The notes under the pieces were generated by a model, which was not told the origin of the DNA, searched no databases, and saw only the letters and a program-made list of their open reading frames with translations. A stretch of DNA of 25,866 nt from a virus (lineage: Duplodnaviria; Heunggongvirae; Uroviricota; Caudoviricetes): IMG/VR virus record IMGVR_UViG_2724679538_000003. One strand, given 5' to 3'. How positions within the stretch are numbered: the first letter of the stretch is position 1; each line of letters starts with the position of its first letter. This document shows, in pieces, positions 1-10,865 of the stretch. The position numbers were made by a program, and so were the translations under genes.

Positions 1-685
1 TTTGCGCTCCAGAAAAGAGTGACGCCCGCGAGTGTGCAGCTCCGGGCGCCGTGGCGTTTTGTGTCTGTGGAGAAACTAACGCATGAACAGTTTAACGGCA
101 AATAACCGTTTGTCGCAACAGCTGGTGATCAGCGTGGCTGAACACCTGTTGTTACGGCATGAATGCAGATTATCAAATCACCTGGCTGTAAGTAACCACA
201 GAGAACTTTACCTGACTGTGGGGGGCGAGTTGTGCAGGAACTTAACCGCTGGTTTCGTGACGGAAGAGGGCTTTATGTCCATGTTATTCGTTGGGAGCCA
301 GAAACACAGCGCGTTATCTATCTTCGCAAAGACTACCCGCATGAGTGCTTTAGTCCTTTGTGGAAATTCAGGCGTGATTTTGTTGAGTGCGAAGAAACAC
401 CAGCACATTGATTCTGTCATTCCGGGACGTTACACTGTTCAGGCACCTTATAAAGCGGGTGCCGGGATTGGCGTCCTGGAATTGCATACGGCGACAATTG
501 GCGCGTTAGCGTCTTTTTTGTTGCTACAACTCAGCTATACCCAAATTATGGTGGGCTGGGTGGGGGCACCGAAAGGTGCGCCGGTTTCCGTATGCGCCGG
601 TTACGCCAACCCTGCTCAGTTCACCACCAGCGAAATTGGCGTTTCCGGTGGTGGAAGTTATCCATTGCATACGGAGGCTGCCATC

Positions 686-5312: not shown

Positions 5313-6065
5313 ATGAACCTTGAAGCCTTACCAAAATATTACTCCCCAAAATCTCCAAAATTGAGTGATGACGCACCGGCGACAGGCTCGGGTGGTTTAA
5401 CAATTACAGATGTGATGGCTGCGCAGGGGATGGTGCAGTCGAAAGCACCGCTTGGGTTTGCCTTATTCCTGGCAAAAGTTGGTGTTCAGGATCCTCAGTT
5501 TGCGATTGAAGGTCTGCTCAATTACGCGATGGCACTGGATAACCCGACATTGAACAAATTGAGTGAAGAAACCCGGCTACAGATCATTCCTTACCTTGTG
5601 AATTTTGCCTTTGCTGATTATTCCAGGTCTGCGGCAAGTAAGGCTCGCTGTGAGCATTGTGCTGGTACTGGATTTCATAATGTATTGCGCGAGGTGGTGA
5701 AACACTCCAGAAGCGGGGAATCTGTTATCAAGGAAGAGTGGGTGAAGGAACTATGTCAGCATTGTCATGGTAAGGGAGAAGTCAGCACAGCGTGCAGAGG
5801 GTGTAAGGGTAAAGGTATTGTCCTGGATGAAAAAAGGACCCGGCTTCATGGCGCGCCTGTTTATAAGATTTGTGGGCGTTGCAATGGAAACCGGTTTAGT
5901 CGTTTACCAACGACACTGGCGCGGTGTCATGTCCAGAAGCTGGTACCAGACCTGACTGATTATCAGTGGTACAAAGGATATGCAGATGTCATTGATAAAC
6001 TGGTTACAAAGTGCTGGCAGGAAGAAGCATATGCTGAGGTGCAATTAAGAAAAGTGACGAGATAA
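5313..6065 (+). CDS. Late-gene antiterminator Q-like protein
   Basis: GGAGA SD, 250 aa, Cys-rich zinc-binding region (CEHCAGTG...CQHCHGKG...CRGCKGKG). Lies immediately upstream of a strong promoter and terminator, as Q lies before pR'/tR'. Confidence 0.8.
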   Translation: MNLEALPKYYSPKSPKLSDDAPATGSGGLTITDVMAAQGMVQSKAPLGFALFLAKVGVQDPQFAIEGLLNYAMALDNPTLNKLSEETRLQIIPYLVNFAFADYSRSAASKARCEHCAGTGFHNVLREVVKHSRSGESVIKEEWVKELCQHCHGKGEVSTACRGCKGKGIVLDEKRTRLHGAPVYKICGRCNGNRFSRLPTTLARCHVQKLVPDLTDYQWYKGYADVIDKLVTKCWQEEAYAEVQLRKVTR

Positions 6066-6125: not shown

Positions 6126-6171
6126 TTTTTCAACGATGGGCTTTATATACCCGACGTTAAGAAAAAGTAGA

Positions 6172-6197
6172 AAACCCGCTGATGAGCGGGTTTTTGT
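6172..6197 (+). terminator. Rho-independent terminator (tR'-like)
   Basis: Hairpin cccgct-gatg-agcggg (6175-6190) flanked by an A-run and TTTTT (6191-6195), about 50-70 nt downstream of the putative late promoter. Confidence 0.7.
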
Positions 6198-6480
6198 GCT
6201 TTAAATAGGGTAATAGAGATGTTGAATCTCATTCCGGGATTCATGTTTGTTTACTTATTATTTATCGGGTGACTTTGCCTGATGTTTAAAATGTTTTCTT
6301 CCAGTACTATGTCCCTAGATACAATGAGTCTGCATATTACATTATTAGCAGAGCTATTACGGTCAAAGTACAGCATAAGCTTTAAAAGCCAATCAACCAG
6401 TCATCAAGACAGACGGGGTTATTCATGAAAACTCTCCATGTTTGATTCGATGGGGCCTGAAATTAAAGCTTTAATATAGC

Positions 6481-6693: not shown

Positions 6694-6995
6694 AAAAAAA
6701 TTCCTTAATACTGATAACTGGGCGCACTATACACACGTTCCTGAAGAAAGCTATAGTTTTTTGATGGGGTTGAAGATGGCTGGATGTCTAAAATAAACAT
6801 TGCTTCATATGTTCAACTATGCGTTAATGATTGCGTCGGTTTGAAGAACAGACGATATACGAAGTAGTTTACTAAAGCAGTTCTCATTTCAGGTGTTATT
6901 CACTTATTCCTTCTTTGAGTCTCTCCAATTAAGTACGAAGTCGTTTCTGTTATACAAGCCATTTATGCCGAAAGGCTCAAGTTAAGGAATGTAGA

Positions 6996-7211
6996 ATGTC
7001 AAATAAAATGACTGGTTTAGTAAAATGGTTTAACGCTGATAAAGGTTTTGGCTTTATTTCTCCTGTTGATGGTAGTAAAGATGTGTTTGTGCATTTTTCT
7101 GCGATTCAGAATGATAATTTTCGAACCTTATTTGAAGGTCAAAAGGTTACCTTCTCTGTAGAGAGTGGTGCTAAAGGTCCTGCAGCAGCAAATGTCATAA
7201 TTACTGATTAA
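6996..7211 (+). CDS. cspB: Cold-shock protein, CspB-like
   Basis: 71 aa, [38 protein letters not shown]...; canonical CspA-family RNP motifs; about 290-bp upstream leader typical of csp genes. Confidence 0.9.
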
Positions 7212-7492
7212 AATTCATAGTTTGTCTGTATACGATAACGAAGAAGGCTGATGCCTGAGTGGAGATACAGACAGAGTGGTGAATATTGGATCTCTTTAAT
7301 AAATAGTAAGGAGGTCCAATACATGAAACAATGGCCAGCATATTTGGCAATAACTTAATCAGGAAAAGTATGCTAACCATTGTGGTGAAGTGCAGGTTTG
7401 CTGCATGAATAGTTTTACAGCAGAAGCTAACTGCTGGCATAGCAAAACAAAGTGCGTAAGTGGATGACTCCCACAAAAAGTACCACAATATT

Positions 7493-7516
7493 AAACCCGC
7501 TCAGGCGGGTTTTTTA
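7493..7516. terminator. Bidirectional rho-independent terminator
   Basis: aaa-cccgc-tcag-gcggg-tttttt; an A-run upstream and a T-run downstream let it work on both strands. Sits downstream of cspB (+) and of the minus-strand zinc-ribbon gene. Confidence 0.7.
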
Positions 7517-7574
7517 TTATCTGCTTTAAATATGTTATTAAAATATAAAAAATACTTGTTACGAATAAAATCAA

Positions 7575-7745
7575 TCAAGCTACAGCTTTAAGATTTGTCT
7601 GGAATACTTTGTTGCAATGAGGGCAGATCAAAAGGGCACCTTTTTGTACTCTTGAAAAACTGTGTTCTGACTCTTGGGTGCAGTTTGGGCAGGAACATTT
7701 AACGAGATAATTACGGCGTGATTTTGAGTCTTTACGTTCTGACAT
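7575..7745 (-). CDS. Small zinc-ribbon protein (56 aa; CxxC-x17-CxxC)
   Basis: Minus-strand ATG at 7745 with an AGGAAAAG SD upstream; MSERKDSKSRRNYLVKCSCPNCTQESEHSFSRVQKGALLICPHCNKVF...; terminator directly downstream. The track ORF extends to 7796 but the internal start has the SD. Confidence 0.55.
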   Translation of the reverse strand: MSERKDSKSRRNYLVKCSCPNCTQESEHSFSRVQKGALLICPHCNKVFQTNLKAVA

Positions 7746-7963
7746 AGGCTTTTCCTGTATAAATGGCCGTATACAGTACACTAAATATGAAAACATATCT
7801 CGTATTATTATTTAATATATGATTTTCTTTTAAAATAATTACCCACATTTTTAATGTGTCTGTTTTTTAGCGCCGTTGAGAACAACGTTTGCTATAAAAA
7901 CTAACCCATAGACTCCGATCTTTTCAAACATATTGCACCATCTGTGTACATCGGGGTGAGGAT

Positions 7964-8179
7964 ATGAAATCAATGGATAAGTTAACAACAGGTATCGCCT
8001 ATGGCACATCGGCTGGTAATGCTGGTTTCTGGGCATTGCAGTTACTCGATAAAGTAACTCCGTCACAGTGGGCTGCAATCGGTGTGCTGGGTAGTCTGGT
8101 TTTTGGCCTGCTGACGTATCTGACAAACCTTTATTTCAAGATTAAAGAAGACAGGCGTAAGGTTGCGAGAAGAGAGTAA
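7964..8179 (+). CDS. Class II holin (phage 21 S-like pinholin) with dual-start motif
   Basis: GGGGTGAGG SD; starts MKSMDKL (Met1 and Met4 dual start as in S21); two TMDs ([19 protein letters not shown] and [23 protein letters not shown]); charged C-terminus. Confidence 0.85.
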
Positions 8180-8183
8180 TCCA

Positions 8184-8735
8184 ATGACACAAGACTATGA
8201 ACTGGTTGTGAAAGGAGTCCGCAATTTTGAGAATAAAGTGGCGGTAACTGTAGCCTTACGGGACAAAAAACGCTTTGACGGTGAAATTTTTGACCTGGAC
8301 ATCTCGCTGGACCGTGTTGAAGGTGCCGCGCTGGAGTTTTATGAGGCAGCAGCCAGAATGAGAATCAGACAGGTATTCCTGGATGTTGCTGCCGGGTTAT
8401 GTGTAGGGGATGAGCAGTCGCCGGAAAAGCGCCCCATAATTTTAGAGGCGCAGAATGTGTGGATAACCTACAAAGGAAAGCTACCGGGAAGAATTACTGG
8501 TTCTCTGAAGACGCCGCCGACGGCATTGCGGTCAGAAAAAGATGATATTGAATCGCCCATTGAAAAACTGGAGGGCAGCGTCGCTGATCTGAATAAAAAA
8601 TTGTCGGTGCTGATCCCTTCTGAAGATGAAAAAAAACGCCGCGATGAGCAGTTTGCGGCGTTTTACGATTATTGCATTGAAGTTACTCGCAGGAGTTTTG
8701 TGAAGATTTTTGAGGAGGGTAAATCTCTTCAGTAA
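8184..8735 (+). CDS. Hypothetical protein (183 aa) inserted between holin and endolysin; occupies the position ydfR has in Qin
   Basis: ATG at 8184 with a GAGAG SD 7 nt upstream, directly after the holin stop; soluble, charged, no TMD. Family not assignable from sequence. Confidence 0.7.
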   Translation: MTQDYELVVKGVRNFENKVAVTVALRDKKRFDGEIFDLDISLDRVEGAALEFYEAAARMRIRQVFLDVAAGLCVGDEQSPEKRPIILEAQNVWITYKGKLPGRITGSLKTPPTALRSEKDDIESPIEKLEGSVADLNKKLSVLIPSEDEKKRRDEQFAAFYDYCIEVTRRSFVKIFEEGKSLQ

Positions 8736-10084: not shown

Positions 10085-10447
10085 ATTAATATTAAATCGG
10101 ATTATTTTTAGCGCTGAATGTGAAATTTAAATAAAAAGGACTCTTCCATGAGTCAAAATCCTTGAAATCTTAAGGGTAAGATAAAAGGTCATTAGACAGA
10201 ATGACACGTTTTATTAATAAATAAAGCTATTGTTTCATTCGTGTGTTTTTCTTTACAAAAGTAATCCTTGCTATGGTTGGTTAATCATGCGTTAATGGTG
10301 TTCTGGTTTGTTACAAAATTATCTGAAGCAGTCATTGTTATAATTTTATTATTTGTACCTCTTGAGATTTCCTTGTTGGTTTTTCTCTCTGATATTTTTT
10401 TTCGGACCATTCTGCCCAAGGGCTAACTTCTTCAAAAGGTAATAATG

Positions 10448-10660
10448 ATGTCTAACAAAATGACTGGTTTAGTGAAATGGTTTAACCCTGAAAAAGGTTT
10501 TGGTTTCATCACGCCGAAAGATGGTAGCAAAGATGTGTTTGTCCATTTCTCAGCTATTCAGAGCAACGATTTCAAAACGTTAACTGAGAATCAGGAAGTC
10601 GAATTTGGTATTGAGAACGGACCTAAAGGCCCCGCGGCTGTTCATGTAGTGGCACTTTGA
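10448..10660 (+). CDS. cspI: Cold-shock protein, CspI-like
   Basis: [45 protein letters not shown]...; about 350-bp AT-rich leader upstream. Confidence 0.9.
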
Positions 10661-10865
10661 GGTAGAAAATATTACAAACCATATTCACTTTAGATGCCCG
10701 TGTTGCCATGGTTCGCAGTATAGAACATCATCTTTTGATGTTTCTGACAGGAATCCTTTCGGGGCAAAATGTATCTTTTGTAAATCAATGATGATTACAT
10801 TTGATAATATTTCACAATACTTAAATGTTAGCCGTCTGTCGTTAGATTTAAGAAAGTGAAAATGA

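Follow-up and report, generated by a model that had tools for sequence, protein, structure and literature searches.

The messenger RNAs (mRNAs) of the cspA family, of which there are about nine paralogues per E. coli genome, are extremely unstable at 37 °C and are targets of PNPase after cold acclimation, and their regulation via RNA structure and stability is established. This regulation has been studied almost entirely via the 5' untranslated regions (UTRs), which, together with the coding region, are covered by the cspA thermoregulator of Rfam (RF01766). Short frames located right after some genes of the family (YnfQ and YnfR after cspI, YmcF after cspG) are annotated and validated small proteins, while among the small four-cysteine proteins borne by phages and plasmids the described transcription regulators include Ogr/Delta (late activators of P2 and P4) and TraR/DksA. 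In this work we analysed the interval between the cold-shock gene cspB and the holin gene essQ (positions 7,212 to 7,963) in a stretch of 25,866 nucleotides (nt) from a virus of the class Caudoviricetes (IMG/VR record IMGVR_UViG_2724679538_000003), which is called here the window. A sequence-only reading had proposed that this interval comprises a minus-strand gene for a zinc-ribbon protein, possibly a phage regulator, with its own Shine-Dalgarno (SD) sequence and a bidirectional terminator, and two SD-led micro-open reading frames (micro-ORFs) on the plus strand. We consider it quite probable that the interval is instead composed of a folded RNA in the 3' UTR of cspB, of which the micro-ORFs are by-products, and of ynfU, a gene of host type carried as a passenger in a mobile cold-shock block.

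The RNA consists of five helices and a conserved single-stranded segment:

7329-7495, plus strand: five-helix element of the cspB 3' UTR (RNAalifold, covariation, covariance model score of 153 bits)
7333-7342/7369-7378, plus strand: helix P0
7380-7387/7481-7488, plus strand: helix P1
7390-7395/7401-7406, plus strand: helix P2
7418-7423/7431-7436, plus strand: helix P3
7460-7463/7471-7474, plus strand: helix P4
7449-7460, plus strand: near-invariant single-stranded 12-mer AAAGTGCGTAAG between P3 and P4 (alignments A3 and A4), which could be a binding site or a seed

All five helices were identified both by inspection and by RNAalifold in A4, a MAFFT alignment of 13 diverse copies. There, 88.6% of the cells are paired, compared to 26-53% in slid controls; changes on both sides are seen in 13 pairs, and none of 500 shuffles reaches the observed values. 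Alignment A5, which was fitted to the covariance model, displays 25 of 35 pairs changing on both sides (0 of 500 shuffles reach the observed value).

The covariance model built from A4 found the element in 30 other sources of 95 (31 matches besides the window). All matches with checked context are downstream of a cspB/cspG-like gene; one weak match away from any csp gene (L015:9102-9268) is probably false. Examples of copies are L097 2464-2629, L098 2468-2619, L096 2474-2629 and L091 5252-5409 (minus strand). BLAST with 7377-7519 reported 79% matches on phage-plasmids of ~110 kb from E. coli and Klebsiella and in phage PHB10, and each of these copies is preceded, at 120-160 nt, by the end of a cspG/cspB-like gene in the same orientation. 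The element sits 80-160 nt after cspB/cspG-like genes on chromosomes, in Qin-type prophages, on ~110-kb phage-plasmids, on IncF plasmids and in PHB10. A search of IMG/VR by sequence pattern retrieved 80 contigs, with a csp gene upstream in 70 of the 72 that have enough flank and with ynfU convergent downstream in 75 of 79, which bears out the conservation of the zinc-ribbon gene in related prophages; YnfU is also syntenic with the element in most genera. After cspI in the window the covariance model finds no such element, and RefSeq has ynfQ and ynfR there instead.

Unlike the cspA thermoregulator of the same gene family, the element is situated in the 3' UTR, past position 7274, where the Rfam model ends, and it belongs to no Rfam family: a search of 7275-7520 against Rfam 15 gave nothing at the gathering score and only weak, terminator-driven matches at E <= 10. 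Its sequence was present in no paper of the literature searched, and a literature search for cspB together with RIL-seq returned nothing relevant. The element is a conserved, folded and apparently undescribed RNA, and as such a candidate for a new family. The cloverleaf-like arrangement of P1-P4 was also considered as a tRNA, and this was rejected because ARAGORN reported no tRNA. A 79.6% match within plasmid "dnaE" annotations was likewise rejected as a csp-independent copy, since RefSeq has cspG just upstream. The copy of Citrobacter amalonaticus (L094 5252-5473, minus strand) carries a 64-nt insertion between P2 and P3 that has an inverted repeat of its own, TTGCAG...CTGCAA, and could represent a REP-like insert or a small mobile hairpin.

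Around the element, the following features of the cspB transcript were identified:

6835-7274, plus strand: cspB leader, coding sequence and start of the 3' UTR (RF01766, 156.5 bits against a gathering score of 78, model positions 1-428)
6996-7211, plus strand: cspB coding sequence, a 71-aa cold-shock domain protein (PF00313, E = 8.4e-32; cspB of CFT073 in RefSeq)
7221-7275, plus strand: hairpin H1 directly after the cspB stop, arms 7224-7231/7265-7272 (minimum free energy fold)
7284-7321, plus strand: hairpin H2 with a 15-bp stem, 7284-7298 paired with 7307-7321 (minimum free energy fold)
7493-7518, plus strand: intrinsic terminator of cspB, with an 8-bp stem including 5 G-C pairs, a 4-nt loop and a T tract

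The region from the cspB stop to the terminator (7209-7522) folds with -104.7 kcal/mol, while the shuffles average -71.1 (z = -6.4) and none of the 100 is as stable. The arms of H1 covary in Superficieibacter and C. amalonaticus around a conserved loop (ACGATAACGAAGAAGGCT..CCTGAGTAG), and Citrobacter has a hairpin at the position of H2 with different arms (GGGTCAGT/ACTGACCC). The terminator hairpin AAACCCGC-TCAG-GCGGGTTT at 7493-7512 is followed on the plus strand by TTTTATTATCT, and the terminator scan calls it on this strand only. On the minus strand the tract after it reads TTTAATATTG; the 3' RNA of ynfU likewise folds into the hairpin, which probably ends ynfU transcripts as well, less efficiently. 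Of the bidirectional terminator of the sequence-only reading, the plus-strand half is thus confirmed by the scan, while the weaker minus-strand half is only plausible. The terminator is conserved in Escherichia, Citrobacter, Superficieibacter and the phage-plasmids, and no GC-rich terminator follows P1 in Enterobacter, Kluyvera and Kosakonia. The promoter scan found no promoter-like site on the plus strand within 7212-7492. The cspB mRNA would accordingly be a transcript of ~680 nt that extends ~300 nt past the stop codon through H1, H2 and P0-P4 and ends at the terminator at 7493-7512. We favour the possibility that the 3' UTR element controls the stability or the 3' processing of this mRNA.

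The two micro-ORFs coincide with parts of this structure:

7323-7358, plus strand: micro-ORF1, MKQWPAYLAIT, overlapping the 5' arm of P0, with TAAGGAGGT at 7307-7315
7370-7408, plus strand: micro-ORF2, MLTIVVKCRFAA, spanning the 3' arm of P0, the 5' arm of P1 and P2

Both exist as strings where the sequence-only reading had placed them, but they are not gene-like and are better explained by the structure of the cspB 3' UTR. Micro-ORF1 is found only in Qin-type loci of E. coli; it is absent from Citrobacter, which has neither its SD nor its ATG, and from other genera, and an 82-nt deletion in Escherichia sp. E1V33 (L018) removes it as a whole. Three of its codons differ from K-12, all non-synonymously, and the variants in IMG/VR (MKQWLAYLAKS, MKQWPAYLAIT, MKQWPAYLAKS, MKQWPAYLVIT, MKQWPAYLAKP and a truncated MKQ*) bring the changes in E. 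coli prophages to five types, all of them non-synonymous or nonsense and none synonymous. The supposed SD is variable (TAAGGAGAT, TAAGGCGGT) and, being included in the 3' arm of H2 (7307-7321), it is paired in the 15-bp stem. Because TAAGGAGGT is an arm of H2, and because Citrobacter makes its hairpin from a different sequence, the "good SD" of micro-ORF1 can be regarded as a by-product of a covarying stem, an illustration of how the arm of a hairpin can produce a perfect SD ahead of an ATG. Micro-ORF1 is most likely not a gene; a literature search for its peptide gave nothing relevant.

Of the 25 distinct copies with the full element, 17 preserve the frame and the stop of micro-ORF2, with a 12-codon consensus x-L-T-(D/I/V)-V-(M/V/A)-K-C-(R/G/S)-x-(A/T)-A and with ATG, GTG or TTG usually at 0 or -6. 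The entropy of its codon positions 1, 2 and 3 (0.75, 0.45 and 0.63) reveals no excess at the third position. The SD is not conserved, the start codon is paired within a helix, and A, G and U are all accepted at the first base of the "start", which is itself paired; the region has no indels because it is helical. Micro-ORF2 is probably not a gene either. The micro-ORFs resemble YnfQ, YnfR and YmcF in being short frames right after a cspA-family gene, but they are unannotated (RefSeq for K-12 has neither, though it lists ynfU, ynfS, ynfR and ynfQ), show no trace of selection for coding and lie across helices that covary. We therefore interpret them as by-products, with the SD of micro-ORF1 supplied by the 3' arm of H2, micro-ORF1 itself lying over the 5' arm of P0, and micro-ORF2 over the 3' arm of P0, P1 and P2.

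The minus strand of the interval contains:

7575-7745, minus strand: ynfU, 56-aa zinc-ribbon protein, CPNC...CPHC (RefSeq WP_001405948.1; PF23499; NF038384)
7753-7757, minus strand: ribosome-binding site of ynfU, CAGGA, 8-12 nt ahead of the ATG
7773-7781, minus strand: conserved motif GTGTA(c/t)(t/g)GT, ~28 nt 5' of the start codon of ynfU

The zinc-ribbon ORF with its own SD is present as had been described. Judged by its matches to PF23499 (Pfam; E = 2.5e-31, 107.7 bits against a cut-off of 27) and NF038384 (NCBIfam; E = 7.9e-23, 79.8 bits against a cut-off of 36), it is the already named and annotated ynfU, known to be translated, and in itself nothing new. The protein shares with YnfU of K-12 and CFT073 96-100% identity, the length, both CPxC knuckles and the genomic location, between cspB and essQ of a Qin-type prophage. 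We compared 80 ynfU loci, one genome per species in 80 species. The ATG of the 56-aa form and CAGGA(A/G) are found at fixed spacing in 79 of them; in the remaining locus (L093) the match starts at residue 8 and the start codon was not read. A 73-aa form starting at an upstream ATG was rejected, since the conserved start is that of the 56-aa form and the sequence further 5' is not conserved. The gene is under strong purifying selection, as its dN/dS values are 0.04-0.13 in comparisons with Citrobacter, Raoultella, Klebsiella, Kluyvera and Atlantibacter. When the upstream regions are aligned, a single block is conserved between genera, GTGTA(c/t)(t/g)GT, and it probably represents the -10 region of ynfU's own promoter.

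Weaver et al. discovered YnfU of K-12 by profiling ribosomes stalled at initiation and verified it with a chromosomal SPA tag, and the tagged protein reached the highest level among the newly found small proteins (bioRxiv 10.1101/511675). It was detected again by PIRT-seq, a transposon-reporter screen (PMC12350097). The evidence for production is taken from this K-12 literature, the window protein being 96% identical to the K-12 orthologue. Because Qin is cryptic in K-12 and YnfU is nevertheless made there, its expression is independent of prophage induction and of Q, in agreement with what the orientation of the gene had suggested to the sequence-only reading; as it has a ribosome-binding site, and probably a promoter, of its own, ynfU of the window would be made in the lysogen independently of Q. 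None of the papers found to mention ynfU assigns it a function. A low-frequency mutation between ynfU and cspB was reported in a paper on evolution under silver nanoparticles, and it is uninformative as to function.

The YnfU family is tiny and confined to Enterobacteriaceae. The 49 clusters returned by a word-indexed search all come from Enterobacteriaceae or contaminated assemblies, and an exhaustive HMM search of 1.84 billion representatives returned 44 proteins at E <= 0.001. The family alignment reveals a near-invariant core RRNYLVKCxCPxCxxxSEHSFSRVQKGxxLxCPxC, and the window protein has the hallmarks of the family, i.e. two CPxC knuckles and the SEHSF(S/T)RVQKG loop in ~53-60 aa. C19, C22, C41 and C44 are invariant or nearly so, and the most distant relatives (30-42% identity) keep all four together with the SEHS loop and LICPxC, but not C17. 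As these four persist in the distant relatives and C17 does not, the zinc ligands are likely the four CPxC cysteines C19, C22, C41 and C44. Two metagenomic gene calls (P0050 and P0058; 167 and 186 aa) have YnfU embedded in read-through frames across the opposite-strand cspB 3' UTR; sequencing errors in the contigs have probably misled the gene caller here.

The AlphaFold model made with the distant homologues aligned (pLDDT 74.9; 79-87 for residues 11-50) comprises four short strands and one short helix, and the N-terminus is predicted to be a disordered basic tail with no helix. The structure prediction agrees with the zinc ribbon that the sequence-only reading had proposed, with two beta-hairpins, each bearing a CxxC knuckle. 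The profile search of PDB sequences reported only weak matches (Tim15/DNL, E = 0.013; L44e, E = 0.03; PhnA-like PA0128, E = 0.5). Placement in the DNL family was rejected, as YnfU members do not conserve the DNL motif that follows the second knuckle. The generic zinc ribbons, i.e. the N-terminal ribbon of PhnA/YjdM (PF08274, PDB 2AKL), LysW, DNL/Tim15 and ribosomal eL42/L44e, all remain below the family cut-offs, and YnfU differs from them by two features of its own, the SEHSF(S/T)RVQKG loop and a basic tail at the N-terminus. A Pfam match to the ATPase domain of the lambda gpA terminase (24 of 30 members, below the cut-off) was rejected as evidence of origin; with the window's own terminase YnfU shares only an 18-residue CPHC knuckle (hhalign probability 42%).

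Analysis of the genomic neighborhood revealed a gene for a cold-shock domain (CSD) protein within 700 nt of ynfU in 56 of the 80 species loci, while the chance of a csp neighbour for a random gene, by our own estimate from the approximately nine paralogues, is ~0.3%. Convergent transcription as in the window is found in 37 of the 56, usually with a cspF-like gene diverging beyond, and the other 19 fall into three other orientation classes, i.e. the linkage of csp and ynfU has survived several rearrangements. A holin, lysozyme or Q homologue occurs within 5 kb in 10 of the 80 loci, and the other 70 have no phage lysis or Q genes. According to the contexts of called genes, ynfU outside Escherichia is usually not in a prophage, and it is chromosomal in most genera. 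Examples of the arrangements are:

Klebsiella: ynfU 5' of the CSD gene, in tandem
Salmonella: ynfU and the CSD gene divergent
Lelliottia: YnaE, ynfU and a convergent CSD gene, in that order
Kosakonia: ynfU convergent with an HSP20 gene
Enterobacter and Franconibacter: ynfU chromosomal, with no csp neighbour

In Lelliottia (L011-L013, 4507-4740, plus strand) the YnaE-family gene lies directly 5' of ynfU and the csp gene is convergent downstream; its prophage paralogues in E. coli, ynaE and ydfK, are induced by cold. The HSP20 gene of Kosakonia takes the place of the convergent csp gene. In phage PHB10 the cspF/csp/ynfU-like block adjoins the integrase gene and not the late region, which indicates that the block moves as a unit. 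In our reading ynfU is a passenger of this mobile cspF-cspB-ynfU block, and its distribution marks it as a host-type gene of Enterobacteriaceae and not as a phage regulator. The distribution of the family and its linkage with the cspA family were not found in the papers searched and are additions of this work.

The window represents a lambdoid prophage of the Qin type, whose region 6900-8200 is 100% identical to E. coli CFT073, S88 and APEC O1. The order of genes in CFT073 according to RefSeq is ydfT/quuQ (antiterminator), cspF (minus), cspB (plus), ynfU (minus), essQ (holin), ydfR, rrrQ, rzpQ and cspI, and it is identical in the cryptic prophage Qin of K-12 MG1655, where ynfU is b4776 and the cspB-essQ intergenic region is 96% identical. 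DNA matches to this intergenic region were obtained for 1623 of 5426 complete E. coli genomes and for a small number of phage isolates, e.g. 2H10, Tritos, HannyBb and PhiR63_1. The late lysis genes begin downstream of ynfU:

7964-8179, plus strand: essQ, class II (S21-type) holin, first late lysis gene downstream (PF04971, E = 7.3e-34; RefSeq)

We propose that the interval is the distal half of a mobile cold-shock block cspF (minus)/cspB (plus)/ynfU (minus), the genes of which are passengers between the Q antiterminator and the holin. In the lysogen, ynfU would be transcribed from its own promoter, with transcripts ending at or near the hairpin shared with cspB. On induction, the Q-modified polymerase coming from upstream of cspF would ignore the terminator and cross ynfU in antisense towards essQ. 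The YnfU protein may be a small zinc-ribbon module that, with its basic N-terminal tail, binds a larger partner (protein or RNA), and some protein-binding role remains the most natural one for a zinc ribbon of 56 aa. The repeated linkage with the cspA family suggests that YnfU acts in the same stress or RNA-handling context; that it binds a partner in the cold or stress RNA handling suggested by its neighbours is a tentative proposal, to which we give clearly less than an even chance.

The suggestion that YnfU is an expressed prophage regulator of the Ogr/Delta or TraR/DksA type, modulating induction or the late genes, appears extremely unlikely. It is a small four-cysteine prophage protein, encoded opposite the late operon and expressed in the lysogen, like the members of these families in size and cysteine content, and its CxxC-x18-CxxC spacing is near the CxxC-x17-CxxC of DksA/TraR. 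Nonetheless, neither the sequence nor the fold gives a signal for such a relationship. Many zinc-ribbon families are present, below their cut-offs, among the Pfam matches listed for the window protein (E <= 0.29), but Ogr_Delta (PF04606) and zf-dskA_traR (PF01258) are absent from these, as well as from the 25 Pfam families that the largest numbers of YnfU members match (each matched by at least 6 of 30). The Ogr pattern, CxxC-x22-CxxxxC, is also a different one. The model also lacks the long N-terminal helix, or coiled coil, that precedes the zinc finger in TraR and DksA, and the fold searches with it returned no DksA, TraR or Ogr structure. YnfU has no PHROG family, the best match being to one of unknown function (E = 0.0026), and a PADLOC search gave no match to defence models. 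Together with the 70 loci that have no phage lysis or Q genes nearby, i.e. a non-phage distribution, and with a prophage that relies on a lambda-type Q and not on P2-type late promoters, this leads us to reject membership of YnfU in either family on the basis of profiles and models. It is somewhat less improbable, but still very unlikely, that the protein is minor and that ynfU and cspB regulate each other through convergent transcription, the ynfU RNA being antisense to the 3' UTR element where the terminator is weak or absent. The convergent loci (37 of 80) have 70-400 nt between the stops, many without a GC-rich hairpin, and the T tract in the minus direction is poor, all of which would suit such a mechanism, but the YnfU protein is under strong purifying selection, the gene is also kept in tandem, divergent and csp-less settings, and the element occurs on phage-plasmids without ynfU.

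As to the RNA, micro-ORF2 (and in E. coli also micro-ORF1) might be translated, with a consensus M(S)(V)LTDVMKCRxAA, and melt P0, P1 and P2, switching the 3' UTR in the manner of a leader peptide. The preserved frame and stop, the presence of ATG, GTG or TTG at 0 or -6 in nearly all copies, and the validated YnfQ and YnfR downstream of the paralogue cspI make this worth considering. Yet third codon positions are not more variable than first ones, the compensatory changes that preserve P1 and P2 alter the amino acid on one side, and the start codon is buried in a helix of 10-13 bp with no conserved SD. Moreover, the start or the stop is lost in L023, L024, L044 and L088, micro-ORF1 is restricted to one lineage, is deleted in L018 and has a nonsense variant, neither frame is among the small genes of K-12 in RefSeq, and there is no downstream gene in the same direction for such a switch to control; we regard the leader-peptide mechanism as unlikely. 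Better placed, though still rather doubtful, is the possibility that the element is released or transcribed as a trans-acting small RNA (sRNA), with AAAGUGCGUAAG as the seed and the U tail of the terminator as the Hfq-binding end. Its anatomy, a conserved single-stranded stretch between hairpins followed by an intrinsic terminator, is like that of sRNAs derived from 3' UTRs, and it is kept across genera and on phage-plasmids. Against this, no conserved promoter precedes the element, several genera (Enterobacter, Kluyvera, Kosakonia) lack the GC-rich terminator, neither Rfam nor the papers searched contain it, and the complement of the 12-mer was found in the window (e.g. the cspB 5' UTR was inspected) only as the site itself, in a search that covered the window. 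We also speculate, with considerable reserve, that the 165-nt five-helix RNA forms an undescribed family spread by prophages, phage-plasmids and IncF plasmids, which controls the fate of cold-shock mRNAs or acts in trans via AAAGUGCGUAAG, and that YnfU is its functional partner, e.g. by binding the RNA or Csp.

The interpretation we prefer, namely a cspB 3' UTR element with micro-ORFs as by-products and ynfU as a host-type passenger, has to be set against several observations. The fitting of A5 to the covariance model inflates its pair counts, and A4, which is independent of the model, contains only 13 sequences. We infer that the element belongs to the cspB mRNA rather than forming an sRNA of its own, as we do any role of YnfU in cold shock. 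In micro-ORF1, TAAGGAGGT followed after 7 nt by the ATG would be a strong, indeed perfect, initiation signal if H2 opens, and in micro-ORF2 a start-type codon and the same stop are retained in most copies, which leaves room for translation of an ORF of 12-14 codons. Since part of the linkage of csp with ynfU reflects inherited synteny, the 56 loci do not count as so many separate events, and 24 of the 80 loci have no csp neighbour. The same is true of the most distant YnfU-like genes, which sit among ordinary chromosomal genes (DinI, Usp, ABM, YdhR or an MFS transporter).

The linkage to csp genes, and to YnaE in Lelliottia, provides a testable cold or RNA-stress context for an orphan small protein that ranks among the best expressed in K-12, and a conserved 3' element would offer a new handle on the control of these unstable mRNAs.

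Several other features of the prophage and its relatives were observed. In E. coli WCHEC4533 (H52, NZ_CP028589.2, 2440897-2442361) the cspB-essQ intergenic region is split by an IS200C transposase gene. Past the holin, a ydfR-like ORF (8184-8735, plus strand) encodes 183 aa, compared to 103 aa in K-12, with DUF1327 at residues 1-112; the CFT073 copy is an incomplete pseudogene according to RefSeq. A second match to the cspA thermoregulator, at 10290-10706 (plus strand, 112 bits), corresponds to cspI. Two other Rfam matches at the gathering score, to the Hfq-binding RNA IsrK (443-519, plus strand, 61 bits) and to the C4 antisense RNA (544-631, plus strand, 81 bits), are within or adjoin the first long ORF (83-1231), and the region 443-631 looks like an immunity module of the P1/P7-type c4-ant or IsrK-anti-Q kind in a lambdoid prophage. 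Finally, a symmetric hairpin AAAACCCGCTCATCAGCGGGTTTT at 6171-6194 (both strands), together with 6223-6243 (plus strand), is located ~100 nt past the Q gene (5313-6065). It may represent tR', the late-promoter-proximal terminator overridden by Q, and the sequence of its stem is similar to that of the hairpin at 7493-7512.

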